Origin: Squalus acanthias
Lineage: Eukaryota
Length of the DNA stretch: 64,000 nt
NCBI GenBank assembly: GCA_030390025.1
Contig: CM059432.1
Coordinates: 10,354,001 to 10,418,000 of the forward strand
Direction: 5' to 3'
Below the pieces are notes generated by a model. It had not been told where the DNA came from and ran no database searches. It worked only from the letters and a program-made list of their open reading frames with translations. Position numbers and translations under genes: made by a program. This document shows positions 3,646 through 57,914 of this stretch, piece after piece. Every line of letters starts with the position of its first letter. Positions within the stretch are counted from its first letter, which is position 1.

Positions 3646-4144
3646 TCAACACCAACTGAACCTTCGAGCTATTAGGGCATCCCTGGCATCCCGGGCAGCA
3701 ATGTACGTGGCTGGTCTGGCGATGGGTGCCTCATCTTCATATTCCTCCTCCTCTTCAATGTTCTCCTCATCCGACGATGAGTGATGAGCGCCTCCGTCCT
3801 CCTCAACCCGCAATCCTCGCTGCTGCGTAATGTTGTCCAGGACGCAGTTCACCACTATGATTCTGGAGACCCTCGCTGTCGAGTACTGAAGAGCGCCTCC
3901 AGACCTGTCTAGGTTCCTGAAGCGCATCATGAACATTCCGAGGGCTTGCTCTTTGAATCTCCAGGTGGTCAACTGGCTCTGGTTGCTGCGCCTCATTGGT
4001 GGGGTTCCTCACAGGTGTCATGAGCCAAGTTTGAAGGGGGTATTTCTTGTCTGCTGTGAGCCAGCCCTTAAGTCTGCTTCCTGGGTTCGAACAGATCTGG
4101 GATACTGGACAGCCGCAGTATGAATCTATCATGACAGTTCCCAA
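3646..4144 (-). pseudogene. Decayed Harbinger (HARBI1-like) transposase C-terminus
   Basis: GWLTADKKYPLQTWLMTPVRNP and RFRNLDRSGGALQYS..., then an acidic patch and LIARRF, split over two frames. Parallels ORF 50675..51835 and is convergent with the Myb remnant. Confidence 0.85.
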
Positions 4145-4182
4145 GGAATCTGCCGCACCCCAGCGTGAACCTCTTCTTGTGA

Positions 4183-5418
4183 TTTTTTTTTATTTGTTCA
4201 TGGGATGTGGGCGTCGCTGGCAAGGCCAGCATTTATTGCCCATCCCTAATTGCCCTCGAGAAGGTGGTGGTGAGCCGCCTTCTTGAACCGCTGCAGTCCG
4301 TGTGGTGAAGGTACTCCCACAGTGCTGTTAGGGAGGGAGTTCCAGGATTTTGACCCAGCAACGATGAAGGATCGGCAATATACTTCTAAGTCAGGATGGT
4401 GTGTGACTTGGAGGGGAACCTGGAGGTGGTGGTGTTCTCATGCGCCTGCTGCCCTTGTCCTTCTAGGTGGAAGAGGTCACGGGTTTGGGAGGTGCTGCCA
4501 AAGAAGCCTTGGCGAGTTGCTGCAGTGCATCTTGTAGATGGTACACACTGCAGCCACGGTACGCCGGTGGTGGAGGGAATGAATGTTTAAGGTGGTGGAT
4601 AGGGTGACAATCAAGCGGGCTGCTTTGTCCTGGATGGTGTCGAGCTTCTTGAGTGTTGTTGGAGCTGCACTCATCCAGGCAAGTGGAGAATATTCCATCA
4701 CACTCCTTACTTGTGCCTTGTAGATGGTGGAAAGGTTTTGGGGAGTCAGGAGGTGAGACACTTGCCACAGAATACCTAGCCTCTGAGCTGCTCTTGTTGC
4801 CACAGTATTTATGTGGCTGTTCCAGTTAAGTTTCTGGTCAATGGTGAACCCCAGGATGTTGATGGTGGGGGATTCGGCGATGGTAATGCTGTTGAATGTC
4901 AAGGGGTGGTGGTTAGACTCTCGCTTGTTGGAGATAGTCATTGACTGGCACTTCTGTGGCGCGAATGTTACCTGCCACTTTTTTGCCCAAGCCTGAACGT
5001 CGTCCAGGTCTTGTTGCATGCGGGCATGGACTGCTTCATTATCTGAGGAGTTGTGAATGGTGCTGAACACTGTGCAGTCATCAGTGAGCATCCCCATTTC
5101 TGACCTTATGTTGAGGGAAGGTCATTGATGAAGCAGCTGAAGATGGTTGGGCCTAGGACACTGCCCTGTGGAACTCCTACAGCGATGTCCTGCGGCTGTG
5201 ATGATTGACCTTCAACCACCACAACCATCTTCCTTTGTGCTCGGTATGACTCCAGCCAGTGGAGAGTTTTCCCCCCGATTCCCATTGACTTCAGTTTTAC
5301 TAGGGCTCCTTGATGCCACACTCGGTCAAATGCTGCCTTGATGTCAAGGGCAGTCACTCTCACCTCACCTCTGGAATTCAGCTCCTTTGGTCCAAGGCTG
5401 TAATGAGGTCGGGAGCCA
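4183..5418 (-). mobile_element. 5'-truncated CR1/L2-group LINE (RT C-terminal half and 3' UTR)
   Basis: ALDIKAAFDRVWHQG, VPQGSVLGP, degenerate (F/L)xDD and YKAQVRSVMEY motifs in ORFs 5106..5525 and 4477..5097. A-rich tail near 4183-4195. Confidence 0.9.
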
Positions 5419-16025: not shown

Positions 16026-16034
16026 TCAGCGCAT

Positions 16035-16650
16035 GGTCTGGGGAGGTCTCGATTGTGGGATCTGATGGTGGTCTGGGGGGGGCTCCCGATTGTGGGATCT
16101 GATGGTGGTCTGGGGGGGTCCCAATTGTGGGGTCTGATGGGGGTTTGGGGGGGTCCTGATTGTTGGCTTTGATGGTGGTCTGGGGGGGTCCCGATTGTGG
16201 GGTCTGATGGTAGTCTGGGGGGGGGGGTCCCGATTGTGGGGTCTGATGGGGGTCTGGGGGGGTCCCGATTGTGGGGTCTGATGGGGGTCTGGGGGGGTCC
16301 CGATTGTGGGGTCTGATGGTAGTCTGGGGGTGTCCCGATTGTGGGGTCTGATGGTGGTCTGGGGGGTTCCCGATTGTGGGGTCTGATGGTGGTCTGGGGG
16401 GGTCCCGATTGTGGGGTCTGATGGCGGTCTGGGGGGGGGGTCCCGATTGTGGGGTCTGATGGTGGTCTGGGGGGGTCCCGATTGTGGGGTCTGATGGGGG
16501 TCTGGGGGGGTCCCGATTGTGGGGTCTGATGGTGGTCTGGGGGGGGGGGGTCCCGATTGTGGGGTCTGATGGTGGTCTGGGGGGTGGGGGTCCCGATTGC
16601 GGGGCATGCTCTGATGGTGATCTGGGGGGGTCCGATGGTGGTCGGGGGGG
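16035..16650. repeat. G-rich minisatellite, about 35-bp unit, about 16 copies
   Basis: Unit GGGGGGGTCCCGATTGTGGGGTCTGATGGTGGTCT with variable G-run length. Confidence 0.95.
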
Positions 16651-17961: not shown

Positions 17962-18673
17962 GGGCTAAAAATTGAGTAGCGCTCCCTTTGGAGCGGTAAC
18001 TTCGCCCTGGAAAAATTAGCGCCCCCGCGACGGAAATTGAGTGGTAGCGCCTCAAGAGGGAAGTGGAGCGCTACTGGAAGCGCCCCGCTACCCTCTTGGG
18101 GCGCTGCGAGGGAATATCGCGGCGCGACGTGCCGCGGTAATGCAGGCCTTCCTCCCCTTCTTAAAGGGGAGGGGCCTTGCGCAGCGCGACCCTGGGCCCC
18201 CGGGGATCGGGAGTGCCGGCAAAAGAGCCCGGCACTCAAGAGAAGTGCCGGGCTCATGGAACACAGCCGGCACACCGCGGGGGAGCGGGTAAGGAGGCCG
18301 GGGACGGGAGCGGAGGCAGATGCCGGCAGGCGGCCAGCAACAAAAATGGCCGCCCCGCACCTCGCCTTTAAATAGCGCCTCCCTGGCCGCAGGTAGGCCC
18401 CCCTGACCCCGTCGGACATAGCGTCCGGCGGTAAGTCAGGGGGCGCTCCTGAAGATCGTGGTCGGGGCACGAGCGTGGCGCTGCGCATGGCGATGACGTC
18501 ATCGCCGGCAGCGCAGCGCCGCGGGGCACTAACGGTTAGCGCCGCCACTAACCTCCCGCTGAATTTCGCAGGAGGTGTTGGCGGCGCTGCGCCCGGGCGC
18601 TAGTTGCTTTGCGCCCCGTTAGCGCCCTCTTAGGGTGCTAATGGGAGGCGCAAAGCAACCCAATTTTTCTCCC
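17962..18673. mobile_element. GC-rich Harbinger-type MITE
   Basis: TIRs GGGCTAAAAATTG / CAATTTTTCTCCC; TSD ATT; right end shares the TTAGCGCC..GGTGCTAATGGGAGGCGCAA block with the autonomous element. Confidence 0.85.
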
Positions 18674-22593: not shown

Positions 22594-23477
22594 GGGGGAG
22601 AAATTCAGTATCGCCCCATTTGGGGCGCAATTATCGGCCGGGCGCAAAGATTAGCGCCTGGCGCTAATTATCGCCACCGACTGCAAACTTGATTTTTATC
22701 GCCCCTGGAGGTGATTGGAGCGCTAAATCAAGTGCTTCACACCTGTCTTAAGGCGCAAAGGCCGAGGAGCGAGGCGTTAACTCAGAGCGCTAGCGAAGCT
22801 CATGTGATGTCAGTCAGCAATGGAACACATACACAATGGCACCGGCCAGTCCTTAAAGGGGATGGTTGATCTTGCTTTCCATCCACATCCTGCTCATTGC
22901 AGCCTTGAATCCCGGCCTGGAGAGACCTGCACATCAAATCTGCTGGAAAGAACAATGGAGAGTACCAGCTTAGAGTGCAGCCCCCACAGTCTCTTCTAAA
23001 TCGATACAAGGAATGGCAAATCAAAATGAACCTGCAAAGTGCTGCTCAGTACCCAAAACTCCTTCACACAGCGTTGAATCTCTCCAGAAGTCTCTCTCTC
23101 TCTCTCTCAGAATGCGTGGTTCAAAAATGTCACCAACAATAAAAGGCAGGAAGCGTTCACCTTTAAATAGCGCTCACCCAGTCCCTTCATGACTGCAAAA
23201 CGCTCCCCTCAACCTGTCATTGCTAGCGGCAGGCAGTAAGGCAGGGGCACCACTCAATATCCGCTCCGGGACGATACTGGGGCGTTGAGCACTCGACTGA
23301 CGTCACGATCTGCCGGCGCAGGAGATCGTGGCGGTAGTGTATAGCACTGCCACAAAATGTCTAGTTAATTTCGCGAGCGGCGCAAACATCGCCGCGCCTG
23401 GGCGCTAGATGCTTTGCGCCCCATTAGCGCCCTCTTAAGGCGCTAATGGGAGGCGCAACCAACTGAATTTTTCCCCC
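22594..23477. mobile_element. Non-autonomous Harbinger derivative (family D)
   Basis: TIRs GGGGGAGAAATTCAGT / ACTGAATTTTTCCCCC; TSD TAT; homologous to 47539-48424; inserted in a CR1 tail. Confidence 0.9.
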
Positions 23478-27280: not shown

Positions 27281-28751
27281 GGGCCGTATTTTCGAATAAA
27301 AATCTATGCACTTACCTGAGGGCTCCCGAGGTGTGTACAGTTCCGATGCTGGGCCTCTCCAACTCCAAGTGCGCAGGGCCCACATATCCCAGGGGCGCAT
27401 GCAGTTCGCAAGCGTCCCTGGGATCACGTGGGCCATGGGGAGCCAATCAAAGAAGGGAATCTCCCTTCATACACTTGACAGATAGACCTGTCAAATATAT
27501 GAATGGAAATCAATGAAAAAACATAGTGGCCCAGAAATTCGTCTCTCCGGCTTGCTGCGGGGGTAAGGATCGTGCGCGCTCTTACCTACCGCGCCTGCCG
27601 TTGTGTTTTGGGCCCACGGGAACTTCGGGTCCTGGGCCTCTCCCAACTGCCGGCGCGCAGTGCTTGCGTGTTCCAGGGGCGCAGTTAGTGTGATGCGACC
27701 CCTGGGATCACGTGGGCCATGGAGAGCCAATGGCAGCAGACCATCTTTCATTCATAAATTTGACAGGAGACCTGTCAAATCTGTGAATTGAAATCGGCCC
27801 CAAAAGGACAGCTAAACATAAAATATTTTTTTTTTAAAAACCATCACATTTATAAAATAACTATAGTTAAATAAATTAACCACTTTAAAGAAAAATTAAA
27901 ATTTTTGAAAAAATTAAAATACTTTTTAAAAGTGATAAAAATAAACTTACCTTTCTTTAAAGTATCTAAAAAAGATAAAACTGTTGAAAAAAAATTTAAA
28001 TTATACTTAATTAACTACTTACCTTGTTGAAAACGGGTCTTGCGCCTCCTTTTCATTAGCGTAGTTTCTTCAATACTTACCCTCGCGTAGAAACCTGAAA
28101 AAAAATCTAAGTGTGCTGCGTGCGCGCAGCCTCTACCGCGCACGCGGTTCACCTAGGAACCGCCCCCTTCACCAGACCGGAAGTTCCGGTTTCCCGCGCA
28201 TGCGCAGTGCATGCAGGAAACCGACACTTTGGGACGTCTTACGGGTGAGTACACAGTGTGTACTCACGCGGGAAGGGCCGAATTTTTGGCCCAGTAAAAC
28301 TTTAAATAATTTTTTTTAAAAACCATCACCTTTTTAAAATTAGTTGAAATTACAATAAACCAAATATTTTAAACAAAAATTTAATTTTTGGAAAAAAATT
28401 AAAGTTTTTTACCGGGCTAAAAATAAACGTAACTTTTTTAAAGTATTTTTTAATGAAAAATGACTGAAAATTTTTTTTTACTTTTTTCAACTTTTATCCT
28501 GGTAAAAGCAGGCCTTACACCTGCTTTTACCAGGCGTAAGATTCTAGAAGGTTTTCTGCGGGCGGAGGTTCTGCAGAAAGCGGAACTATCCGCCCGCAGA
28601 GGCCCTTCTCCAGGGCAGGCGTCTGATCTGTCAAGAGCATTCTTGACAGATCGGAAATGCCAGTTTTCAGTGCATACACTGTGCATGCCTGAAACCGGCA
28701 TTTCCGATGTCCCTACGGGTGGGTACGCGCTGTGTACGGAATATACAACCC
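27281..28751. mobile_element. Middle MITE (family C)
   Basis: TIRs GGGCCGTATTTTC / GAATATACAACCC; TSD ATT. Confidence 0.75.
27528..28292. mobile_element. Inner MITE (family E)
   Basis: TIRs GGCCCAGAAATTC / GAATTTTTGGCCC; TSD AGT; the empty site AACATAGTAAAAC is seen at 15921. Confidence 0.85.
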
Positions 28752-32929: not shown

Positions 32930-33340
32930 TAGAGTTTGTTTTCTTTGGAACAGAGGAGGCTGAGGGGAGACCTTGTTGAGGTGTATGAAATTATGAGGGG
33001 CCTAGATAGAGTGAATTGGAAGGACCTATTTCCCTTAGCAGAGAGGTCAATAATCAGAGGGCAGAGATTTAAAGTAATTGGTAGAAGGATTAGAGGGGAG
33101 TTGAAGAGAACTTTTGAGGGTGGTGGGGGTCTGGAACTCACTGCCTGAAAGGGTGGTAGAGGCAGAAACCCTCACCACATTTAAAAAATACTTGGATGTG
33201 CACTTGATGTACAGGGCTACTGACCAAGAGCTGGAAAGTGGGATTAGGCTGGATAGCTCTTTGTCGGCCGGTGCGGACACAATGGGCCGAAATGGCTTCC
33301 TTCCGTGCTGTAAATTTCTATGATTCTATGATTCTATGAT
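32930..33340 (+). mobile_element. CR1 LINE 3' end
   Basis: FSLEQRRLRGDLVEVY motif; TTCTATGA tail repeats. Confidence 0.9.
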
Positions 33341-33949
33341 TTAGTCCTGAGCTGTGAGCTGAATATTTGTACCGGGCTCATGGTACATGCATAGGGGAGA
33401 GCAACATGCATTTGCTTTTGTCCATTTATTCACCCTGCAACTTACATTGAACCACCGTGTACCAGGCTGACTTCACCAGCAACAGCTTTCAGCCATCATT
33501 ATGCTCTTGACGTTTGATAAGTTAGAATCATGGAATAGTACAGCACAGAAGGAGGCCATTCAGCCCATCAAGTCTTCGCCGGCTCTTTCGAAAAGCAATC
33601 CAGTTAGTCCCACTCTCCCCGGCTCTTTCCCCATCTCTCTGCAATGTTTTCTCCTTCAAGTATTTATCCAAGTCCCTTTTGAATCATAGAATCATAAAAT
33701 CATAGAATGGTTAAAGTGTTGAGGCTGCCGCGAAACACGAAAGGAGGCTGAATCCATATGTGGAAAACAAGAAACTTTTATTCACTGCATGGCACACAAA
33801 AATGTCTGAGAAAGCTGCTCCCAGAATTCTCTGGAAAAAACTCCCAGAATTCTCTGGGTAAAACCTGAGGCCCCGCCCCCTTCTGCCTTAAAGGTAATGT
33901 GCCTTAAAGGGGAAGGTGCTGGAAATTTGTCCACAGACGGAAGAGTGGA

Positions 33950-36490
33950 TTATGCCCGTTTTAGGTGGCGATCCGCCACACAGCTCCCCCCAGAATCCGC
34001 TTGGAAGGTGTGGACGAGACGGTGCAGCGGTCTGATAGGCCGGCCGGAGCGGCTCTTGTAGGACGCCGGTGGACGTGGAACGGCCGGGCGTGGAGCAGCC
34101 GGGTGAACCGGCTTGAGGGCAGGTCGGCCGCGTGGAGGTGGACGAGCTACAGGGACCTGCTCCCCGGGCTCCGAGTGTGCTGGCTTGAGTCGGTCCACCG
34201 ACACTTTTTCGGTCCTGTCGCCCACTTGCAGGGTGAAAAATTTGTCCCCAGCCTGTAGCACCTTGTAGGGCCCGTCGTACGGGGGTTGAAGGGGTCCGCG
34301 GTGGGCATCGTGCTGGACGAAAACAAACCGTGCCTGGTGCAGGCTTAGTGGGACGTGTGAGGTGGATTCGCCGTGTCGGGCAATGGGCACCGGGGCGAAC
34401 TGCAGCGCCGGTGAGGCGAAGTCGTGGCGTTGCTGGTCGGCTGACCAGGGTGTCGTGGCGGTGGGCAGGAACTCGCCGGGTACGCGCAGCGGCTGACCGT
34501 ACACGAGCTCTGCTGCCGATGCGTGGAGGTCTTCTTTAACCATGGTGCGCAGGCCGAGGAGGACCCACGGAAGTCGGTCGGTCCAGGCGCCGTCTTGGAG
34601 GCTGGCTCGAAGAGATGCCTTCAAGGATCTGTGGAACCGCTCACACAGTCCGTTGGCTTGGGGGTGGTATGCTGTGGTGCGGTGAATGGTCACCCCGAGA
34701 TTGCGTGCGATGGCGGTCCAGAGTTCAGAGGTAAATTGCGGACCTCTGTCCGACGTCATGTCGGAGGGGACGCCGAACCGTGCGACCCAGGTGCTGACGA
34801 AGGCTCTGGCGATGTCGGCGGTGGTGGTAGAGGTCAGTGGAATTGCCTCAGGCCAGCGTGTGGTGCGGTCAACGATGGTCAGCAAGTGCGTGTGGCCTTG
34901 CGACGGCGGCAGGGGCCCGACGATGTCCACATGGATGTGGTCGAATCTCCGCGAGGGGACGGTAAACTCCTCGAGGGGTGCTTTCGTGTGTTGCTGTACC
35001 TTGGCCCGTTGGCAGGCTAGGCAGGAGTTGGCCCAAGTACGCACATCCTTGCGAAGGCCGCGCCAGACAAAGCGGTTGGCTACCAATTTGATGGATGCGC
35101 GGGCGCCGGGGTGGGAGAGGTTGTGGAGAATGTCGAATACCCGGCGGCGCCAGGACGCTGGGACAACGGGCCGAGGTTGACATAGGGATATGTCACACTT
35201 GACCATGACTGCGGTCGGGCCACAGGCGACGTCGGCCAGGCGTAGCCCTGGTAGGTTGGTGGGTGCGGAGAGCAGATCAGGGTCGGTGATCTGGTCTGCT
35301 GCGAGTTGAGCGTAGTCGACTGCTAGGTGTGCGGCGTGGATGGCGGGGTGGGAGAGGCAGTCGGCTACCACATTGTCTCGGCCGGAGACGTGTTGGATGT
35401 CCGTGGTGAACTCGGACACTGCCGCGAGTTGGCGCTGCTGCCTGGCGGACCAGGGGTCGGTTGTCTTTGCCATTGCGAATGTCAGGGGCTTGTGGTCGAC
35501 AAACGCAGTGAAGGGGTGGCCCTCAAGCAAAAAACGGAAATGGCGGACCGCCAGGAACAGCGCGAGGAGCTCGCGGTCGAAGGTGCTGTACTTGACCTCC
35601 GGGGGGCGTAGTTGGCGGCTGAAGAAGGCAAGTGGTTGCCAGGCGCCGTCGACCCACTGCTCATACACGGCGCCGACCGCGTGGTCGGAGGCGTCCGTGG
35701 TGAGCGCTACCCTGGCATTGGGCCGTGGGTGCGCGAGCAGGGTGGCATTGGCGAGCGCGGTCTTGGTGGAATCGAAGGCGGCGGACGTGTCTGCCGTCCA
35801 TTCGACCGCCATCTTGCCGCTCCTGCCCCGGATGGCTTCATACAGGGGCCTCATGAGGGACGCCGCTTTGGGGATGAAGCGGTTATAGAAATTCACCATC
35901 CCGAGGAACTCCTGGAGGCCTTTGATGGTGGTGGGGCGGGGAAATTGTTGGATGGCCTGCACCTTGGTGGGCAGGGGAATGGCCCCAGCATGGGTGATGT
36001 GGTGGCCGAGGAAGTCGATCTTGTCCAGGCCGAACTGGCATTTGGCTGGGCTGAGGATGAGCCCGTGGTCGCTGAGGCGCCCGAACAGGATGCGAAGGTG
36101 TTCGAGGTGTTCCTGCTTGGAGGAACTGGCTACCAGGATGTCGTCCAGGTAGACGAACAGGAACTTCAGGTCCCGAAGGACCGAGTCCATGAGCCGTTGG
36201 AATGCCTGGGCCGCGTTTTTGAGGCCGAAGGGCATCCGCAGGAACTCGAACAGGCCGAAGGGGGTGATTACGGCCGTCTTGGGGACGTCCGCGGGGTGGA
36301 CGGGGACTTGGTGGTAGCCGCGCACCAGGTCGACCTTGGAAAAGACTGAGCGGCCGGCCAGTCTAGCCGAGAATTCGTGAATGTGCGGCACGGGGTACCA
36401 ATCAGGGGTGGTGGCGTCATTGAGGCAGCGGTAATCCCCACAGGGGCGCCAACCTCCGCCTGGTTTGGGGGCGATGTGGAGTGGGGATGA
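33950..36490 (-). pseudogene. pol: Gypsy pol: RT - RNase H - integrase
   Basis: [26 protein letters not shown] zinc finger, DIVGP..SDRG..ERFH and GPY motifs. Out of frame with the upstream protease because of a deletion. Confidence 0.93.
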
Positions 36491-37682
36491 AGTGTTCCAC
36501 CCCGTGTTTGGCGGCCTCCGCGGAGAAGGTCGGATTGGTAAGGGCCGGGAATTCGGCCAGGAGTGCCGAGTAGTCATCCGTGGCCCGGGCGTGGCACTGT
36601 GACGCCATGTCGGCGGGTTGACGAGGGACCATGGCGCCCAGGATGGGGGACATGGTGTTCATGTCCACGAGGCGGTGACGAGGGATGTCTACCAGTAAGC
36701 CATGGGCACACAGGAAATCTGCGCCGATGAGGGGGGAGAGCACCTTGGCAGTGATGAACTCCCATCGGTAGCGGTGACCAGCGAGGTCGAGGGTGACTGT
36801 CCGGGTGCCATACGTCCGGATTTCCGAGCCGTTAGCAGCAGCCAGCGCCGGTCCTCGTTCGCCCATTTGGATGTCGAGGGAGGAGGCCGGGATGATGCTG
36901 TGCTGAGCCCCAGTGTCGCACAGGAACCGGCGGCCGGTTTTGTCATCCGTGACAAACAGCAGGGAGCCCGCGTGGCCCATGGCCATCGTGGGGGCTGGAA
37001 CGGGGGCGGACTTGAAAGAGCAGGGAGGTGTGCACCGTTGTGCCCTGGCGCCGAACCGTGCGTGGTAGTAACAGTGGCCCGGGTTAGTGGGGCGTGAAGG
37101 CCCCGTGGGCCTGGTGACAGGCCCTTGTGGCCATGTGCTGGATGGTGAGGGGCGCGCCCAGGCATTGGCTGCCAGGTCCGGAGTGACGTCGCGGCTGGAG
37201 TGAGCGGACAGCAGCTTGTTGGCCTCATCGGCCAGAGCTTCCAGGTTCGTGAGGCCGGACGCCACGATCGCTGGGCGGATGCTGAGAGGGAGCTGGCGGA
37301 TGAACAGCGTGCGGAAGAGGGATCCGGGTGGGCTCTCGTGGGTGAGGGAGAGCATGTGGGAGAGGAGGTCTGACGGTGAGGCATCACCGAGGCCTGGAAG
37401 GTCGAGGAGGTGGCAGTTTCGCTGATATGCCGAGGCCGTAAATTTTTTAAGGAGCGCCGTTCTGAGATGTGCGTACTTGCCTTCCTCTGGTGGGTTCTGC
37501 AGCGTTGTCCAAACCTTGGAAACTGCGGCGCTACTGAGTGATGTGACGAGATAGTCGTACTTCGTCCCATCTGTGGTGCTATTTCACAGCCGGAAGCGAG
37601 ATTCAGCTTGGAGAAACCAGGCTTCGGGCTGGTTTTCCCAAAACTCCGGCAGTTTCACGGAAACTGCGTTCGTATCCGCCAT
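36485..37682 (-). pseudogene. gag: Gypsy gag-protease (premature stop and frameshift)
   Basis: MADTNAVSVKLPEFWENQPEAWFLQAESRF then TGA; CYYHARFG..AQRC.PPC zinc knuckle; FLCDTGA protease motif. Confidence 0.85.
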
Positions 37683-37707
37683 TGCAGTGCTCGGAATACG
37701 TTCTGAG

Positions 37708-37721
37708 CGTCGGGGTCACCA
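37708..37721 (-). promoter_or_regulatory. Primer binding site complementary to the tRNA-Trp 3' end
   Basis: TGGTGACCCCGACG, 1 nt after the 5' LTR. Confidence 0.85.
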
Positions 37722-37986
37722 ATGTTGAGGCTGCCACGAAACACGAATGGAGGCTGAATCCATATGTGGAAAACAAGAAACTTTTATTCACTGCATGGCA
37801 CACAAAAATGGCTGAAAAAGCTGCTCCCAGAATTCTCTGGAAAAAACTCCCAGAATTCTCTGGGTAAAACCTGAGGCCCCGCCCCCTTCTGCCTTAAAGG
37901 TAATGTGCCTTAAAGGGGAAGGTGCTGGAAATTTGTCCACAGACGGAAGAGTGGATTATGCCCGTTTTAGGTGGCGATCCACCACA

Positions 37987-39830
37987 ACAGCATGTATCAC
38001 TTTACATTTTTCTGCGTTAAATTTCATCTGCCACGTGTCCACCCATTTCACCAGCTTGTCTATGTCTTCTTGAAGTCTATCACTATCCTCCTCACTGTTC
38101 GCTATACTTCCAAGATTTGTGTCATCTGCAAATTTTGAAATTGTGCCCTGTACACCCATGTCCAAGTCATTAATACATATCAAGAAAAGCAGTGGTCCTA
38201 GAACCAGCCCCTGGGGAACACCACTGAATACCTTCCTCCAGTCCGAAAAACAACCGTTCACCACTACTCTCTGTTTCCTGTCACTTAGCCAATTCCGTAT
38301 CCATGCTGCCACTGTCCCTTTTATTCCTTGGGCTTCAACTTGCCTATTATGTGGCACTTTGTCGAAAGCCTTTTGAAAATCCATGTACACCACGTCAACT
38401 GCATTACCCTCATCAACCCTCTCTGTTACCTCATCAAAGAACGCAATCAAATTAGTTAAACACAATTTGCCTTTAACAAATCCATGCTGGCTTTCCTTAA
38501 TTAATCCACACCTATCCAAGTGACAGTTAATTTTGTCCCTGATTACTGTTTCTAAAAGCTTCCCCACTACCGAGGTAAAACTGACTGGCCTGTAGTTGCT
38601 GGGTTTATCTTTACATCCTTTTTTGAACAATGGTGTAACATTTGCAATTCTCTCGTCCTCTGGCACCACCCCTGTATCTAAGGAGGATTGGAATATTATG
38701 GTCAGTACCTCCACGATTTCCTCCCTCAATTCCCTCAGCATCCTAGGATGCATCCCATCCGCTCCTGGTGATTTATCTACTTTAAGTGCAGCCAGCCTTT
38801 CTGATACCTCCTCTTTATCAATTTTTATCCGATCAAGTATCTCCACTACCTCCTCCTTTACTATGTCTATGGCAGCATCCTCTTCCTTGGTGAAGACAGA
38901 TGCAATGTACTCATTTAGTACCTCAGCCATACCCTCTGCCTCCATGCATAGGTCTCCTTTTTGATCCCTAATCGGCCCCACCCCTCCTCTTACTACCCTT
39001 TTACTATTTATATGCCTATAGAAGACTTTTGGATAACATTTTATGTTGGCTGCCATTCTATTCTCATACCCTCTCTTTGCCCCTCTTATTTTCTTTTTCA
39101 CTTCTCCTCTGACCTTTCTAAATATAGCCTGATTCTCAGATGTATTTGCAAACTGACATCTGTCATACGCGCTCTTTTTCTGCTTCATCTTACTTTCTAT
39201 CTCTTTCATCATCCAGGGAGCCCTGACTTTAGTTGCCCTGCCTTTCCCACTAGTGGGAATGTACCTCGACTGTACCTGAACTATTTCCTCTTTAAAGGCA
39301 GCCCATTGTTCCATTCTAGTTTTGCCTGCCAATCTTTGATTCCAGTTTACCCGGGCCAGATCCGTTCTCATCCCACTGAAATTGGCCTTCCCCCAGTTAA
39401 ACATTTTTACTCTAGATTGCTCCCTGTCCTTTTGCTTAGCTAATCTAAACCTTATGATACTATGATCACTGTTCCCTAAATGTTCACCTACTGACACTTG
39501 CTCCACTTGACCCACCTGATTCCCCAGAACCAGATCCAGCAATGCCTACTTCCTCGTTGGGCCGGAAACACACTGATCAAGAAAATTCTCCTGAACACAC
39601 TTCAGAAATTCTTCGCCCTCTCTGCCCTTAACACTATTACTATCCCAGTCTATATTAGGATAGTTGAAGTCCCCCATTATCACTACTCTATAGTTCTTGC
39701 AGCTCTCTGTAATTTCTCTGCAAATTTGCTCCTCCATATCTTTCCCACTATTTGGTGGCCTATAGAATACACCTAGTAGTTTAAAGGCACCTCTATTATT
39801 TCTTAACTCTAGCCATATAGATTCTGTCTT
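37987..39830 (-). mobile_element. CR1 ORF2 fragment (endonuclease end and RT); continues at 44091-44197
   Basis: GDFNYPNIDW, SDH, NYRPVS, DFQKAFDKVPH, VPQG and FADD motifs. Confidence 0.95.
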
Positions 39831-47538: not shown

Positions 47539-48424
47539 GGGGTAAAAATTAGGTCGCGCCCCATTTGGGCCGCAAATATCGTCTGGACGCAAATATTAGC
47601 GCCTGGCGCTAATTATCGGCACTGACTGGAAACTTCACTTTTACCGCCCCGGGAGGTGAGTGGAGCGCTAAATCAGGCGCTGCACACCTGTCTTAAGGCG
47701 CAAAGGCCAAGGAGTGAGGCGCTAACTCAGAGCGCTGGCGAAGCTCATGTAATGTCAGTCAGCAATGGAACACACACACAATGGCACGGGCCAGTTCTTA
47801 AAGGGGATGGTTAATCTTGCTTTCCATCCACATCCTGTTCATTGCAGCCTTGAATCTCGGCCTGGAGAGACTTGCACATCAAATGTGCTGGAAAGAACAA
47901 TGGAGAATACCAGGCAAAGAGCTCAGAGTGCAGCTCCCACAGTCTCTGCTAAATCGATACAAGGAATGGCAAATCAAAATGAACCTGCAAAGTGCTGCTC
48001 AGTACCCAAAACTCCTTCACACAACGTTGAATCTCTCCAGAAGTCTCTCCCTCTCTCTCTCAGAATGCGTAATTCAAAAATGCCACCAACAATAAAAGAC
48101 AGGAAGAGGCCCCCTTTAAATAGCGCCCCCCCCCCCCCAGCCCCACAGCGATTGATAGCGTTCCAGTCTTCTGGTCGTTGGATGCGCCAGGCGGCGCCAC
48201 TCGATTTCCGCTCCGGGGCGCCACAAGGGCGTTGCACCATGGAATGATGTCACAATCTGCGCGCGCAGGTGGTCGCAGCGGTAAAGTTTAGTGCCGCCAC
48301 ACAATCTCTAGTTAAGTTCCCGAGCGGCGCAAACATCGCTGCGCCCGGGCGTTAGCGGCTTTGCGCCCCATTAGCGCCCTCTTAAGGCGCTAACGGGAGG
48401 CGCAACCAACTGAATTTTTACCCC
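47539..48424. mobile_element. Non-autonomous Harbinger derivative (family D), ends nearly identical to the autonomous element
   Basis: TIRs GGGGTAAAAATT / AATTTTTACCCC; TSD TTG. Confidence 0.92.
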
Positions 48425-50674
48425 TTGGACTTTAAAAGAGACTGCCTGTTGGTTTCTGTGAAGATAGCAGGAACTGTCTGTCTTTTGGATTGCCATGGGA
48501 CCTGTCTCAATGCTGACGTCATGAAAGGCAGGAGCCTTTTCATATTCGAACTTGTGTGATTTGGGGAAAACCACCTTTTGTCCATGGAGCCAGGATGCCT
48601 GGATGGACAATGAGGTTTGCAGGCCAAAAGTAACACCTCTGGACTCTTTCAATGATGGAGCAGTCAAGAACTTAACAGTTAGCAATTTGAGAACTGCTCA
48701 TCTACAGTAATGGCCTACCATTGTTTTCTTCAAGATGATGAATCCAAGACAGAGACATCACCAGGTAAACCAACTAGCATCTCAGCGACCATGGTAACCA
48801 GGAATCGCCCAGCAAGTTTTGTGTATTGCACGGGGTATAAACATGCTGAACTTTGGGGATGCAGGGCTTGCTTGCTTTTCTCTACCATCTGTAATGGGGG
48901 TTCTCCGCGTAACTACGCGTCTGTCAACTCTCCAGGAACGCCCGAAGTGAGTGCCTCGTCGTACCGCCTGAACGTAACTCTCTAGGCCTCATCGCATGCC
49001 TCTGTTAGGCACAGTTTTGTCTCTGGAGTCGAACGGAGCCGGGACCGCGTGAATCAACGACAAGGGCTGGTAATTATATCCAGCATACACCTCTAGAAAT
49101 CCCCAGGACGCCCGCTTGTTTTGCTGCTGAGGAACTGCAAGTGTCCAAGACGCAGGCTAACACGTGTGTGTGTGTGAGGAGGCTTCCAAGTGTGGGTTCT
49201 GACCAAACCGGGAGAGGGGTTTAGTTAGAAGGGTTTTTCCCTTATCTAGGCTTAGATTCTGGGAAGGGGTTGGTTCGGCGTAACCAACAGGGTGGGTATT
49301 TTATTCTAAAGTTATAAGCTAGTGTCCACGGTCACCTATTCGTTCTGCCATAAGCGAGAGGAGTAGGGATTGTCATTTTTGTGAATGTAATAAAAGGAAT
49401 CGATCTTTGACCAACCTGAACCATTTTGTTTTGCCTGAATCATTTATAATGGCCCGAAAATTAGACCTAATACGCGAGAGTACGCACTGTGTACTCTCGC
49501 GTTTTAGGTCTCCAATTGCCGGTTTCCTGCATGCACTGCGCATGCGCGGGAAACCGGCACTTCTTGAATTCAAAAGGGGGCGGTTCCTAAGTGAACCGCG
49601 TGCCCACTACAGGCTGTGCGCACGCAGTGCACTTAGTGCTTTGAACGCGCAGGTAAGCATGGAAGATTTTACACATAAAGAAAGGAGGCGTAAGAGCCTC
49701 TTTTAACAAGGTAAGTAGTTAATTAAGTATTATTTTAAATTTTTTTCAACAGGTTTATCTTTTTTAGAGACTTTAAAGAAAGGTAAGTTTATTTTTATAA
49801 CTTTTAAAAAGATTTTAAATTTTTTCAAAAATTTAATTTTTTGTTTAATGTGGTTAATTTATTTAACTATACTTATTTTATTAATGTGATGGTTTTTTTT
49901 AAAATTTAATTGAGGTTTAGCTGTTCTTTTGGGGGTGTGTAGGATTCATAGCTTTCACAGCCCTTGCTGTTAAAGCTATGAATGAAAGATGGTGTGCTGC
50001 CATTGACTCTAACTGAATCACGTGATCCCAGAGCTCGCACGAACTAATTGCGTCTCTGGGTCACGCAAGCACTGCACAGCTGCAGCCTTGAAACTAAAGT
50101 TCGTGTGGGCCCGGAGGAAAAAGGTAGGTGCGGAGTGAGATATCGCGGGGAAGCCTTACCCCGGGATAAAAATTCACTTGGTTGCGCCTCCCGTTAGCGC
50201 CTTAAGAGGGCGCTAATGGGGCGTTAAGCCGCTAACGCCCGGGCGTAGCGATGTTTGCGCCGCTCGAGAACTTAACTTGAGATTGTGCGGCGGCGCTAAA
50301 ACTTACCGCTGCGACCACCTGCGCGCGCAGATTGTGACGTCATTCCATGGTGCAACGCCCTTGGGGCGCCCCGGAGCGGAAATTGAGTGGCGCCCCCTGC
50401 CTTACCGCCTGGCGCTTCCAACGACCGGAAGACTGGAACGTTATCAATCGGTGTGGGGCTGGGGGGGGCGCTATTTAAAGGGGGCCTCTTCCTGTCTTTT
50501 TCTGTGGTCGACATTTATGCACCACTCGTTCTGAGAGAGAGAGAGAGATTCGGAGAGAGAGAGAGAGAGACTTCTACATTGACTCAACGCTTTGTGAGGT
50601 AGTTTTGCCTAGTTCATCCTAACTTTGTTGCTACTTTAGTTGCTGTACCTCATTACTTTTCTGGCAAAGAGAAT

Positions 50675-51835
50675 ATGGGGGCTGCAATGATTGGGGGCGT
50701 CGTCCTGCTCCAGCTGAATCGGAGGATAGTGAGACGCAGACAGAGAGTGGCAATGATGGCCAGACGGAGGAGGGCCATCAGGCGCATGTACAGGAGAGCT
50801 TACCCTCCCAGGGTATATCGTGAACAGCTCTCCTACATCCATATGTCCGAGGAGCTGTGTTTGCGAAGGCTGCGATTCAGCAAGGAGGTGGTCACTGAGC
50901 TCTGCCACCTGCTGCAGCCAGATCTGCAGCCTCAGCTGAGGTCCAGGACGTCTCTGTCGGTGGCAGTGAAGGTCACAGTGGCTTTGAACTTCTACGCCAC
51001 TGGCTCATTCCAAGCTGCTGTTGGGGACCTCGCCAATATCTCCCAGTTTGCGGTGCATCGCTGCATCCGGCAGGTCACCAATGCCCTCTTCAGAAGGAGA
51101 CGAGACTCCATCTCTTTCCCTATGACCCCAGACAAGCAGCGTGACTGTGCTCTGGGCTTTGCGAGGGTAGCGGGCTTCCCCATGGTGCAGGGCGCCATTG
51201 ACTGCACGCATGTGGCTTTGCGTGCTCCGCGAGAGAATGCAGAGGAATTCAGGAACAGGAAGGGGTTCCATTCCTTGAATGTGCAGTTGGTCTGTGACCA
51301 CAGACAGGTGATACTCGCTGTCAATGCCCACTATCCGGGCAGCTGCCACGATGCTTTCATCCTGCGCCAGACTACTGTGGCAGAAGTTTTCGAGGCACCG
51401 CATCAGCCAGTTGGTTGGCTTCTGGGGGACAAGGGGTACGCATTGAGCACCTGGCTGATGACACCGCTCCGTACGCCAAACACCCCTGCTGAGCTGCGGT
51501 ACAATGAAAGCCATCAAGCAACCAGGAACATTATTGAGCGCACAATCGGCGTGCTGAAACAACGGTTCCGCTGTCTGGACCATTCCGGAGGAGCCCTGCA
51601 GTACTCGCCTGAGCAAGTTTCGAACTTCGTAGTCGTGTGCTGCATGTTGCACAACATGGCAATCCTCAGGACCCAGCCAATGCCACCAGGCCTTGTAGCA
51701 CCACCAGAGGAGGAGGAGGAAGAGGAGGAAGAGGACGAGGACGATGATCATCAGCAGCACCAAGGCAGGAGGGCGGCCCACAATGGTCAAACTGCAAGGG
51801 CCGTCCGTCAACGACTAATAGCAAGCCGCTTCTAG
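50675..51835 (+). CDS. Harbinger DDE transposase (HARBI1-like), 386 aa
   Basis: Uninterrupted ORF with GAIDCTH, NRKGFHSLNVQLVCD, PGSCHD, LLGDKGY and RNIIERTIG; TATTTAAA upstream near 50472. Confidence 0.95.
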   Translation: MGAAMIGGVVLLQLNRRIVRRRQRVAMMARRRRAIRRMYRRAYPPRVYREQLSYIHMSEELCLRRLRFSKEVVTELCHLLQPDLQPQLRSRTSLSVAVKVTVALNFYATGSFQAAVGDLANISQFAVHRCIRQVTNALFRRRRDSISFPMTPDKQRDCALGFARVAGFPMVQGAIDCTHVALRAPRENAEEFRNRKGFHSLNVQLVCDHRQVILAVNAHYPGSCHDAFILRQTTVAEVFEAPHQPVGWLLGDKGYALSTWLMTPLRTPNTPAELRYNESHQATRNIIERTIGVLKQRFRCLDHSGGALQYSPEQVSNFVVVCCMLHNMAILRTQPMPPGLVAPPEEEEEEEEEDEDDDHQQHQGRRAAHNGQTARAVRQRLIASRF

Positions 51836-52129
51836 GGCCCCTGCCATTGCTACAAACACTAATCAACCCAGCACGCAACCCCTAAGCCGGCCAAGGCACC
51901 AATAATTCCAACCACCAGCCATGTATATTTTGAATACAGAAACTTATTTATTTTACAAACTCTGTGTGTGTCAATTCCTCATGACAAACTCATAGAAATA
52001 AACACAAAAAAACAGTCAATAACATAACTGGTTCTCACAACCTGGAGATAATGTCCAAAACACTAAACAAAAGTTGGACCATGAACCTCGGCCTTTAATA
52101 AAAAAATGACCAGTATTTTGGCACACCTC

Positions 52130-54114
52130 CTACTTTTTGCCCTTCGAGGGTGATCTCCTTCCCTTGCGCACTTCCCCCCTTCTAACCCTACTGCTCCTCC
52201 GTAATGGGACCTCAGTGGCTGCAGCAAGGCTGGTGGAAGGCTGCTGCTCGTCAGACCCTGACACTGCAGATGCCCCTGAAGGACGGCCTCGACCACTTCT
52301 GGGCCTGGAGGGCCCGGCTGCAGACTGCACCAACTCTGCATGGGCGGCAGCAGTCTGTCCTACAGGCGGTGGCAAGTGCAGTGGAGAAGTGACAGTGTTG
52401 GCAGCAGGAATGCTGTCATCGTGAGAGAGGACAGCAACTCCCTGCTCGCCCGACACACTGGCACTCCCACGGGGCAGCACTTCAGCATCCGGAGCAATTT
52501 GCCGGAGAACAGATTGCTGGCCTGCTGCGGCGCGGTGACAGCCCCGGGGACATGTGCACGAACCATCGAGGATGGCAGCAGTCAGTGCTCGCGTGGCCTC
52601 AATCTGAGTCTGCATGAGAGCAGTCTCAGATGGGTTCCTGGCAGCCAGTGACTGAATTGCAGCACTAAGCTTTAGTGTGGCATCCGCCTGTGCTACAGCG
52701 AAGTGCTCCACACTCCTTGCCAGTGACTCAATGCATTCGGGCACCCTTCCCACTGCACCCATGAGCTCAGTGTGCATGCCCACCGCCTGGCTGTTCATTT
52801 CTGCAATCAGCCGCTCCTCCTCTGCGTCCATTGCAGTAGGAGTGTCTGGCATACTCTCCCTCTGGGGAGAAGGCCCCCGTTCTTCCCTCCCCCCCCAATG
52901 GCGTTGCTGCAGCCCGCTGGGTCCTGGAGCTTCACCATCATCAGCCCCTTCCCCCCTGCTCCCCTCCGGGGAAGGCGTGTTCCCAGTGTGGGCATGGGTT
53001 TCCTCGGGAGAGGGTGGCACTGATGCTCCGGCTTCCTCTTCCTCCTCAGCTGCAGCATCACTCCCAGTGGCAGCTTCAGGGCCCGTCTCCTCAGCTGGTG
53101 AATCACCATCTGAAAGCAGGGAGGTACAAGAGTGGCTTTAGCGTGAGGACAGGGTGGCAGTAAGGGAGGAATAAGTGCAGCGAGTTAGCAAGTTGGATTG
53201 AAAGTGTCAACGGCTGGTATTGTGAGGGACAAGTGGAAGGACAGAGGACAAAAAGGTGATGACCTTACCATTGCTGTCCACAACGGGGTCGGCGTCTCCA
53301 GTGGCGACGGGACCGATCACCCGGCTTGCCACAATCCTGTGGACGCGCTCCTCCAGATCGCTGAGGGGTTGCAGCTGAAGCCGCCCTCCACCCGTCCGTT
53401 GCTGCTGTCTCCGATTATGAGCCAGCTTAGCCTGCAAGAAAAAGGACAGCATCTGAGTAAATATACAGCCATGGTCTTGCCTGATGTGCCTCCCATAGGT
53501 GAATAGCCCTTACAATATACAGCCATGGTCTTGCCTGATGTGCCTCCCATAGGTGAATAGCCCTTACAATATACAGCCATGGTCTTGCCTGATGTGCCTC
53601 CCATAGGTGAATAGCCCTTACTGTATGCAGCCATGGTCTTGCCTGATGTGCCTCCCATAGGTGAATAGCCCTTACTGTATACAGCCATGGTCTTGCCTGA
53701 TGTGCCTCCCATAGGTGAATAGCCCTTACTGTATGCAAAGTGTGGAATGTGTGTGTGTGTTTGATGAAAGGGCCATAGGTGTTGGATGAGTGTTGTGCAT
53801 TGGGGTTTTAAGACCCTCTGGCCATAGAGTGAGGTTGAGATGGAGGGATGGAGAGGTATTGAGAAAAAGCCACTCACCCTGACGACCCGAGTGAGGTCGT
53901 TGAACTTTTTGCGGCATTGAACATGGGTCCTGGGCACCATGCTCCTGGAGGAGACGCTCTGAGCCACCTCCCTCCACACTCTTCTGAACTCGCGTGGCAA
54001 AGGCCTCCTGCCACTCTCCGGGAACAGCATGCATCGTCTGCGCTCCACTGCGCCAACCAGAGCATCCAAGGCCCGCTCGGTGAAGCGATGAGCGCGTTCT
54101 CTCACCCTCTCCAT
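52130..54114 (-). CDS. Harbinger Myb/SANT-like DNA-binding protein; exons 54114-53878, 53431-53269, 53109-52130 (459 aa predicted)
   Basis: RFTERALDALV...W.EVA..V...RT..QCRKKFNDL trihelix domain; GT-AG junctions of phase 0 and 1 give one open frame ending in a basic tail. Confidence 0.88.
53462..53733. repeat. 54-bp tandem repeat, 5 copies, in Myb intron 1
   Basis: Unit TATACAGCCATGGTCTTGCCTGATGTGCCTCCCATAGGTGAATAGCCCTTAC(AA/TG). Confidence 0.95.
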
Positions 54115-55831
54115 GCTTGGCAGCAAAATGGATTACAGGTCTCTCCAGGCTGAGATTCAAGGCTGCAATGAGCAGGGTGTGGCTGGGGAGCAAGTGGCCC
54201 CCCCCGCTTTAAGAAGTGTCCGGCGCCATTGTGTCTGTGTTCCCTCGCTAACTGGCAGCACCTGCGCTGCGCTCGCGTGCTGAGTTAGCGCCTCACTCCT
54301 TGGCCTTTGCGCCTTAAGAGAGGTGTGCAGCGCCTAATTTAGCGCTCCACTCACCTCCCGGGGCGGTAAAAGTGAAGTTTCCTGTCCGTGCCGATAATTA
54401 GCGCCAGGCGCTAATATTTGCGTCCGGACGATATTTGCGCCCCAAATGGGGCGCGACCTAATTTCTACCCCTGAAGTGTTTAATTTCTGGGCCATTCTAT
54501 CCATAGTAACTCCTTGGGTCTGAACTTGGGGGTTGTGGGGCTTATGGTTCGCGGTATAATTCGGAAGACCAACCGGGTGGCATCCGGTCACGGCCGGGTT
54601 ACACAGTAATCCCGCTGGGGATGCTGCGCATCGGGTATAGGAGAAGACCTATTTGGCCTTGGTCTCTCTCTCTGTGGGATTACCCGCTAATCGACGGGCT
54701 GGGCAGGGACTATTGGCATAAGCTCCTGCCGTCCAAGGGAAACAACCCAAACCGGGGAGTTTTTGTGGCACAGGTCGACTCAAGGGAGAGTCATAGAAAC
54801 ACGAGGCACGCAAAAACACCCTACAAGCCGAGTTTTGGATGACTTCAAGTTTACGTAGGGTAGAAGGTGGGAGGCCAGCCAGGAGTGCATTGGAATAGTC
54901 AAGTCTAGAGGTAACAAAGGCATCGACGAGGGTTTCAGCAGCAGATGAGCTGAGGCAGGGGCGGAGACGGGCGATGTTACGGAGGTGGAAATAGGCGGTC
55001 TTAGTTATGCTGCAGATATGTGGTCGGAAGCTCAGTTCAGGGTCAAATATAACACCAAGGTTGCGAACAGTGTGGTTCAGACTCAGACAGATGCCAGGGA
55101 GAGGGATGAAGTCAGTGGCTAGGGAACGGAGTTCGTGGCGCAGACCAAAAACAATGGCTTCAGTCTTTCCAATATTTAATTGGAGAAAATTTCTGCTCAT
55201 CCAGTACTGGATGTCGGACAAGCAGCATGACAATTTAGAGGCAGTGGCTGGGTCGAGAGAGGTGGGGAGGAGATAGAGCTGAGTGTCATCAGCGTACATA
55301 TGGAAACTGAGGCTGTGTTTTCAGATGATGTCGCCAAGGGGCAGCATGTAGATGAGAAACAGGAGGGGGCCAAGGATAGATCCTTGGGGGACACCAGAGG
55401 TAACAATGCGGGAGTGGGAAGAAAAGCCATTGCAGGTAATTCTCTGGCTGCGATTAGATAGATAAGAATGGAACCAGGCGAGTGCAGTCCCACCCAGCTG
55501 GACGACGGTGGAGAGGCTTTGGAGGAGGATGGAGTGGTCAACCGTGTCAAAGGCTGCAGACTGGTCGAGAAGGACGAGTTTACCTTTGTCACAGTCACAA
55601 AGGATGTCATTTGTGACTTTGATGAGAGCCGTTTCGGTACTGTGGCAGGGGCGGAAACCTGATTGGAGGGATTCAAACATGGCGTTCTGGGAAAGATGGG
55701 CACGGATTTCGGAGGTGACAGCACGTTCAAGGACTTTGGAGAGGAAGGGGATGGGGCAGTAGTTTGCAAGGACAGAGGGGTCAAGGGTTGGTTTTTTGAG
55801 GAGACGGGTGATAACGGCAGATTTGAAGGAG

Positions 55832-56295: not shown

Positions 56296-57126
56296 ACAGA
56301 GGGGGACAGTACCTGAGGAGAGAGAACCGTTAACAATATCAGCTAACATGGGAGCCAGAAAATGAAGCTGGGTAGGTCAGCAGTTTAGTGGGAATAGGGT
56401 TGAGGGAGCAGGAAGTGGATCTCATGGACAAGATTATCGCGAGAGGTCATGAGGGGAGCTCGGAGAGAAACTGGAGAAAGATGCAAGTTCAGGGCTAGGG
56501 CAGGGGAGGAACCTTGGAGGAAGTTTGGCCCGTGGGCTAAGGGAAGAAAGGGAAGTGGCCAGAGGCAGCTGATCGGATGGTCTCAACCTTGGAGACAAAG
56601 AAATTGGGTCAATGCCAATACCTTGGATTTGTATAGCATCATTAACCAAATAAAATGTCCCAACGAATTTCACATAGGACAGAGCGGACTGAGTGGTAGT
56701 ACAAGAATTAGAAGAGTTGACCACTGAAAAGATTGTGAGGAAGACGGCAAAGGAAGCAGCAAAAGGTGAGTTTAGGACCCACCAAAAATCTGGAAATAAA
56801 AAGCTGGTATCAGTAATGGTGACCATGAAGATGGTGGTTTGTTGTAAAAACCCAACTGGTTCACTAATGTAGCTTTAGAGAAGAAAACCTGCCGTCTTTA
56901 CTTAGTCAGGCCTATATGTGACTCCAGTCCCACACCAATGTGGTTGACTCTGAAGTGGCCTAGCAAGCCGCTCAGTTATATCAAACCGTTAGAAACATAG
57001 AAGGCCCACCACCACCTTCTCAGGGCAACCAGCGTTGGGCAATAAATGCCGATCTGGTCAGCGACACCTAAATCCCGAGAATGAATTTTTTTTAAACTCT
57101 CTCCCTTCTTTGAAAAGCCTCTTGAG

Positions 57127-57252
57127 CACTTGTCCCTTCAATCTTAAACACTTGTCCCTTCAATCTTAAACACTTGTCCCTTCAATCTTAAACACTTGTC
57201 CCTTCAATCTTAAACACTTGTCCCTTCAATCTTAAAAACTTGTCCTTTAATC
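57127..57252. repeat. 22-bp tandem repeat, 5 full copies plus a partial
   Basis: Unit CACTTGTCCCTTCAATCTTAAA. Confidence 0.95.
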
Positions 57253-57914
57253 TTTCCCATCTCTTGATCAACGTACTTCTAGCCTCTTGTAAAGCACTCT
57301 GAGACGATTTGCACGTGAGGCTACTATATAATTGCGGGTTCTTGATCTTGTGTTCGATTTACCAAAATTTCTTGCTAAATTTTGCACTTCACAATTTTTT
57401 TTAGAAAAGAAAGCCTGTGGAGTGTTTCCTACAACCAGCACAATTCAGATGCAGTTGATTGATTTGAAAAGTTGTGTGAGATTTCCTCAAAATATCCATG
57501 AATGTGGATAGAGCAACAGGTAGTTTATACACACATATCGGACTGTCAGCAATCCCCATTCAACTTGAAGCGAGACTGGAAGTTAAAAGGATCAGTCCTT
57601 CCTCCGACATTGAAAGGTCAGAATGATTCACATTACCGGTTGTCAGTGTATTTCAAACACACAATCAAAGGAATCTGCAATGACCGCCAAGCCACAAGGA
57701 AGTACACCACAGTTCAAGAGATGGATATTGCAGCTTAGCTTAGCTTGACATCAATTGTCAATTGAAATACATTTTGTCTCCATCAATTAACCCTCTAACT
57801 GAACCCCCAGCACCCTTGATCTTAGCAATTCAGTTACACGGGAAATTCTGTAAAAATATCTCAACAATGGGAGACCACATTCACACTTGTAAAGTTTAAC
57901 GGTGGCATTTTGTG

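Follow-up and report, generated by a model that had tools for sequence, protein, structure and literature searches.

The described transposon systems closest to the one reported here, a PIF/Harbinger element in a 64,000-nucleotide stretch of the shark Squalus acanthias (contig CM059432.1; the whole stretch is called the window), come from zebrafish, rice and sea kraits. The zebrafish pair Harbinger3_DR/Harbinger3N_DR shares with the shark element a transposase accompanied by a Myb-like protein, short terminal inverted repeats (TIRs), a target-site duplication (TSD) of 3 bp and non-autonomous derivatives, as far as the published text available to us goes (PMC2836001, PMC3016246). It differs in being a consensus reconstruction reported to transpose in human cells, and in its CWG TSD within a defined 15-bp target (PMC2836001, PMC3016246), where the shark element's two relatives carry TTG and TAT. 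Ping, Pong and mPing of rice likewise combine a Myb-like open reading frame (ORF1) with a transposase (TPase), give rise to MITEs (miniature inverted-repeat transposable elements) and are described as dependent on TIRs and TSDs (PMC2836001, PMC9921582, PMC4561436). They differ in being plant elements, described as having demonstrated present-day activity. For both Harbinger3_DR and Ping, the two proteins are reported to be needed for transposition (PMC2836001).

Harbinger-Snek of sea kraits is also a vertebrate element with transposase and DNA-binding genes and a large expansion; 269 intact copies are reported from Laticauda colubrina and 1 from L. laticaudata, with RNA reads over both genes of that one copy (PMC8437027). 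Snek is described as horizontally acquired within the past 15-25 My (PMC8437027), whereas the nearest proteins of the shark family are shark paralogs, 60-66% identical, and the present copy differs from it further in its damaged junction. Fish Harbingers are reported to be widely expressed, and the same 2022 survey, in the text available to us, records no Harbinger in elephant shark and urges that other cartilaginous fish be checked (PMC9179366). For the grey reef shark, a 2025 genome paper goes no further than listing Harbinger and Tourist types as the most common DNA transposons (PMC12498223). The literature we searched held no detailed characterisation of a shark Harbinger family, though subscription papers, repeat libraries and supplements may hold one, and, with coverage incomplete, no assay demonstrating a naturally active vertebrate Harbinger. 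Two-gene Harbingers that are intact and transcribed have already been published from vertebrates; the copy described here is real, well preserved and worn. We consider it probable that it is a full-length copy of an abundant family, inserted in an older MITE, that has since decayed beyond self-movement with its frames still open.

Two open genes between short terminal repeats

The 4309 bp from 50163 to 54471 are a complete two-gene Harbinger whose frames are both open and whose catalytic acidic residues are retained. Non-autonomous relatives at 47539-48424 and 22594-23477 have ends matching its own, and the features of the superfamily are present: a DDE_Tnp_4-type transposase, a separate Myb/SANT-like gene, short TIRs and, on the relatives, 3-bp TSDs. 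The 12-bp TIR cores lie at 50163..50174 on the plus strand (GGGATAAAAATT) and at 54460..54471 on the minus strand (GGGGTAGAAATT, read as the reverse complement); they agree at 10 of 12 positions and are shared with MITEs. Position 4 of the left core is A, where the other five ends of this Harbinger family within the window have G. The element is flanked by CCC and TGA, which differ, so that it stands without a TSD. A sequence-only reading of the window had reported this gene pair, both TIRs with GGGA for GGGG in the left one, and the missing TSD, and our analysis bears out each of these observations.

The transposase gene is intronless and runs on the plus strand from ATG to TAG at 50675..51835, encoding 386 amino acids. 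Residues 175-327 match Pfam DDE_Tnp_4 (PF13359, E 2.7e-39), and 500 shuffles of the element gave no stop-free run of at least 386 codons, the longest being 316. The DDE residues D176, D252 and E288 are kept and are the commonest residues of their homolog alignment columns; all three are present in 52 of the 108 homologs that cover all three sites. A homolog search returned 396 matches among 3589 candidates, and the leading ones of the best 120 are chondrichthyan gene models. These models, labelled 'putative nuclease HARBI1' (Pristiophorus japonicus, Heptranchias, Narcine, Mobula and others), belong to the same transposase clade; closest among the matches listed are P. japonicus paralogs, at 60-66% identity. 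Because the best match listed is only 66% identical, none of the named proteins represents this exact family. In a tree of 73 proteins the transposase groups with many Pristiophorus paralogs (support 0.85), apart from genes conserved across species. An AlphaFold model of the transposase has a mean pLDDT (predicted local distance difference test score) of 83. A PDB sequence search gave nothing below E 0.03, and a structural comparison with the PDB by Foldseek had no hit at E <=0.001, only weak DDE transposase/integrase rows, the best at 3.6e-3.

The second gene converges on the first from the minus strand. Exon 1 (53878..54114) encodes a Myb/SANT-like DNA-binding domain (PF13873, E 4.7e-9; also PF13837), intron 1 (53432..53877, 446 bp) is GT-AG, exon 2 (53269..53431) continues exon 1 without a gap against the homologs P0008 and P0122, intron 2 (53110..53268, 159 bp) is again GT-AG, and exon 3 (52130..53109) encodes an acidic, low-complexity region and a basic C-terminal tail. 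This was the sole three-exon GT-AG combination in the ranges scanned around the expected junctions, and it yields 459 amino acids ending in a single stop. With exon 1 as query there was 1 homolog match of 171, while exon 3 had no Pfam match and no homolog among 8000 candidates. An AT-rich spacer (51836..52129) separates the stops of the two genes and contains, by motif scan, polyadenylation-like hexamers at 51997 and 52097 on the plus strand and at 51947 and 52094 on the minus strand. Within intron 1 lies a 54-bp tandem repeat of 5.1 copies with 98% identity (53462-53734); a contig of run X9 departs to different sequence at 53730, and the repeat may be specific to this copy or to a subfamily.

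Splicing was assessed in contigs from four of 24 listed sequencing runs, aligned to 49300-54700: X2 and X9 (DNA), and X18 and X19 from two organisms, whose RNA type is our guess, the spliced joint being the sole sign of RNA. The joint 53109-53269, which removes intron 2 exactly, occurs at a depth of 367 in X18 and 622 in X19 and is absent from both DNA runs, X2 and X9; this is one of the two junctions that the sequence-only reading had predicted. X18 also has unspliced contigs over intron 2 and over the intron 1 donor. Support for intron 1 comes from homology, namely gap-free alignments across it in P0008 (51 of 109 positions identical) and P0122 (42 of 81); the 15 of 47 joints listed do not include its joint and give no evidence either way. 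P0008 is itself one of the HARBI1-labelled models, and its Myb domain, 47% identical over 109 amino acids, is colinear across intron 1. Because of the intron 2 joint and these homologs, the model of the Myb gene is very likely correct; in the family this gene is transcribed, with intron 2 truly spliced at the family level. Contigs give neither strand nor level of transposase RNA and do not assign transcripts to a copy. Those from the RNA-type runs carry the family's letters at 51108 and 51146, not this copy's, and expression therefore belongs to the family.

Lesions at the left junction and in the transposase

The element sits within an older, non-autonomous Harbinger-type host element; neither this nesting nor the loss of host letters described below had been recognised in the sequence-only reading. 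The left part of this host MITE (49451..50162, plus strand) matches an uninterrupted copy at 27528-28292 at about 80%, and its right end, with its TIR, follows the insertion at 54472..54493 on the same strand. The host MITE's own TSD is AAT/ATT, with one mismatch, and the joint 49449-54496 expected of an empty site is found in three of the four runs (X2, X18 and X19). From the insertion point to the end of the host MITE the uninterrupted copy has 32 letters and the window 22, and where the window retains 3-5 letters, copies of the host in X2 and X18 show 13-15 (12 of 32 rows listed). Judged by these two comparisons, the left junction has lost 10 bp net of host sequence, together with the left TSD if one had formed, a deletion that explains why no TSD is seen. 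The changed TIR position 4 adjoins the gap. An origin of the left end's four letters in the host MITE was considered; it would need two deletions. For mPing, altered TSDs are reported to reduce transposition, and non-matching TSDs to lower excision-site repair drastically (PMC4561436).

The host MITE family (49451-50162, 27528-28292) has several conserved motifs resembling 5' splice sites and an AT-rich core. The sequences flanking the host MITE, 49300-49450 and 54494-54700, are repeats themselves, with X2 depth in the thousands, and three short frames near them have no Pfam match.

The transposase carries substitutions of its own. Residue 145 is S (position 51108), where 156,250 of 156,284 units of X2 depth (99.98%) and all X18, X19 and X9 depth have an F codon; among 116 homologs, 106 have Y or F in this column. 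At residue 158 (position 51146) the copy has C against an R codon in 99.8% of X2 depth and in all X18, X19 and X9 depth, and at 51259 it has a silent difference from at least 99% of X2 depth and all depth in the other three runs. In the Myb gene, residue 295 differs from most family depth, and exon 3 is 3 bp longer, in frame, at 52895 than in most of the X9 and X19 depth. The differences considered are 40 of 220 rows, 14 of them in the transposase and 3 in the Myb frame. Taken as single letters, 8 of the 14 transposase differences are synonymous, as are 7 of the 11 that part of X2 depth shares. These small numbers fit shared differences between subfamilies diverged under selection, with the copy's own changes resembling decay.

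An intact, active copy would have undamaged junctions with matching TSDs and no substitutions at conserved transposase residues; here the junction is damaged, the TSD is missing and a conserved residue is changed. The sequence-only reading had proposed a candidate active copy, functional or nearly so, and had named substitution at invariant residues as grounds for refuting it. The full-length two-gene structure, the open frames and the D/D/E residues stand. The claim of function is not supported, given S145 at a near-invariant column, the loss of 10 bp net and the TSD at the left junction, and the family's letters in the contigs of the RNA-type runs. Rather than a candidate active copy, this is likely to be a worn relic.

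By analogy with Harbinger3_DR and mPing/Ping, the Myb/SANT protein would bind the element ends and carry the DDE transposase into the nucleus; the transposase would then excise the element using its 3-bp TSDs and reinsert it elsewhere with a new 3-bp TSD. The same proteins could mobilise the 0.9-kb non-autonomous relatives in trans, which would explain the MITEs in the window. In this copy, we infer that the junction lesions impair excision in cis and that S145 and C158 impair catalysis or folding, so that the transposase is probably weakened. Chance may have kept the frames open, given the many copies and the slow mutation of the lineage.

Several observations weigh against decay beyond self-movement. 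The right TIR, all four GT-AG sites and both frames are intact, and D176, D226, D252 and E288, which we take to be metal ligands, are all present. Position 4 of the TIR is C or A in sister Harbinger families of the window, and in mPing a single mutated TIR is reported to be not necessarily immobilising (PMC9921582). Column 158 varies among 119 homologs (R 65, W 14, Q 10, H 9, C 7), so that C158 may be tolerated; we interpret the pattern of R followed by W, Q, H and C as that expected from CpG decay. Residues 145 and 158 are not placeable on a solved relative, because the PDB searches gave no close structure, and the AlphaFold model, built on the family alignment, is uninformative on the effect of S145. 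With 40 of 220 difference rows considered, the list of lesions is partial in both directions. Long family pieces from X9 also differ little from the copy, as set out below.

Abundance of the family and alternative readings

The Harbinger family is large and heterogeneous, because 65,069 X2 contigs align to 49300-54700 (a stretch that includes the host MITE and its flanks) at 90-100% identity, and because 57% of the element's words occur in a run as small as 9 million letters. By identity, 15,065 of these contigs are at 99% or above, 24,401 at 95-99% and 25,603 at 90-95%. Summed contig depth is not taken as copy number, and contigs do not resolve loci. Seven of the eight long X9 pieces listed differ from the copy at 20 positions in 2522 bp (0.8%); the eighth is a second variant of an overlapping stretch, with 13 differences over some 200 bp, and was omitted for that reason. 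Among the pieces listed, those of X18 differ by 2.2% and those of X19 by 4.7%, and in the transposase core contigs of the RNA-type runs differ at 11 of 164 and 7-8 of about 210 letters. Divergence is patchy, with a peak at 51030-51470, which suggests subfamilies or mosaic copies. The element is present in 20 of the 24 listed runs (8 organisms, 12 studies). Horizontal transfer was considered and set aside: runs of organisms B and D also hold the host MITE and the left flanking repeat, and related or shared genomic DNA is therefore indicated.

The shark mutation rate is reported as 7e-10 per bp per generation (95% confidence interval 1.4-14.1e-10; PMC10587355), and because it is so low, low divergence need not mean a recent insertion. 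At this rate 0.8% divergence corresponds to about 11 million generations, which overstates the age of the insertion because the 0.8% also counts differences between subfamilies. From four near-private sites in 4309 bp, hand arithmetic arrives at about 1.3 million generations. In a simulation of neutral decay, with CpG and indel rates assumed, both frames and the splice sites stayed intact in 48%, 31%, 14% and 11% of cases at 0.3, 0.5, 0.8 and 1.0% divergence. Open frames are thus to be expected in many dead copies.

Could the copy itself still be a working autonomous element, with S145 and C158 tolerated and the ends still excisable? Its frames are open, its catalytic residues kept, its transposase model folds confidently and most of its length lies within about 1% of long family contigs. 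But with no TSD, a 10-bp loss at the left junction, S145 in a Y/F column, and contigs of the RNA-type runs that have the family's letters at 51108 and 51146 and differ from the copy in the transposase core, we think this distinctly improbable. Though immobile, the copy might still provide other copies and MITEs in trans with a functional Myb helper, possibly along with a weak transposase. The lesions found so far lie in the junction and the transposase, the Myb splice sites are canonical, and an X9 contig over 53708-54024 with 1 difference covers most of exon 1 (53878-54024). However, no contig links a transcript to the locus, expression cannot be assigned to a copy from contigs, and residue 295 is unlike most family depth; we regard a helper role as quite unlikely. 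The wider proposal, that the family is still transposing in shark germ lines and that only a few changes separate this copy from a two-component vertebrate Harbinger that works naturally, draws on the spliced Myb contigs from two organisms and the many contigs at 99% identity or above; we hold it to be unlikely.

The lesions could also be assembly errors in a pristine locus. Essentially all X2 depth contradicts the window's letter at 52114, 49339 and 49385, and the junction falls within a C/G run between repeats. Yet about 34 units of X2 depth at 51108 lack the family letter (the actual letter is not displayed), a depth resembling that of long X2 pieces (17-33 for 7 of 8 listed) and fitting a real low-copy variant; the host MITE's TSD is mutated too, and contigs drop rare variants. 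This makes assembly error very improbable. Domesticated Harbinger-derived genes (HARBI1, NAIF1, MSANTD) are single copy and without TIRs. The HARBI1 label of the database homologs and the two open frames might suggest such a gene pair here rather than a transposon. The locus instead has TIRs at both ends and MITEs with the same ends, the insertion is nested, diverged contigs number in the tens of thousands, and the tree places its transposase with Pristiophorus paralogs, not with conserved genes. Domestication is hardly credible, effectively refuted by the multi-copy state. A worn copy of an abundant family remains the reading we favour.

Neighbouring elements and significance

The nearer relative, 886 bp on the minus strand (47539..48424), has matching 12-bp TIRs and an intact TTG TSD, and it agrees with the element at 216 of 230 positions at one end and 189 of 200 at the other. 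The second, also on the minus strand (22594..23477), has a TAT TSD and end matches of 185 of 230 and 171 of 200; it lies within an octamer repeat resembling one at 33316-33341. A further Harbinger-type MITE of 712 bp at 17962-18673 has an ATT TSD, and its right end resembles the element's left end. A 3-bp TSD accompanies each of the five non-autonomous Harbinger-type elements that were checked in the window; four are exact (TTG, TAT, ATT, AGT) and that of the host MITE has one mismatch. For an extended target preference (9-15 bp), six sites were listed by eye, without statistics. Across 47539-54471 the MITE and the autonomous element are in inverted orientation, with ends of the same type facing inward over 6.9 kb and inverted arms of 336 nt at 88%; such a composite unit would be mobilisable in principle, and its outer flanks, TTG and TGA, form no TSD.

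Elsewhere in the window, a frameshifted remnant of another Harbinger transposase lies on the minus strand at 3829-4196 (tblastn E 3e-21). A long terminal repeat (LTR) retrotransposon occupies 33717-37991 on the minus strand, its LTRs (33717-33984 and 37723-37991) 97.8% identical, with a gag-like frame (DUF7041) and a 902-residue reverse transcriptase (RT)-RNaseH-integrase frame, an order of the Ty3/Gypsy type. It adjoins the RT frame of a long interspersed nuclear element at 37956-39545. Tandem arrays comprise 15.3 copies of a 35-bp unit (16034-16584) and 6.2 copies of a 22-bp unit (57120-57254).

The import of these findings is modest: a large, transcribed and spliced Harbinger family is documented in a shark. 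They also illustrate that, where a family is abundant and its lineage mutates slowly, open frames are weak evidence of activity. Should the family turn out to be active, it would offer a natural vertebrate two-protein transposon for work on mechanism and structure, and a non-reconstructed cartilaginous-fish system, with the donor at 47539-48424 ready, in which Myb-assisted cut-and-paste and target choice could be studied.

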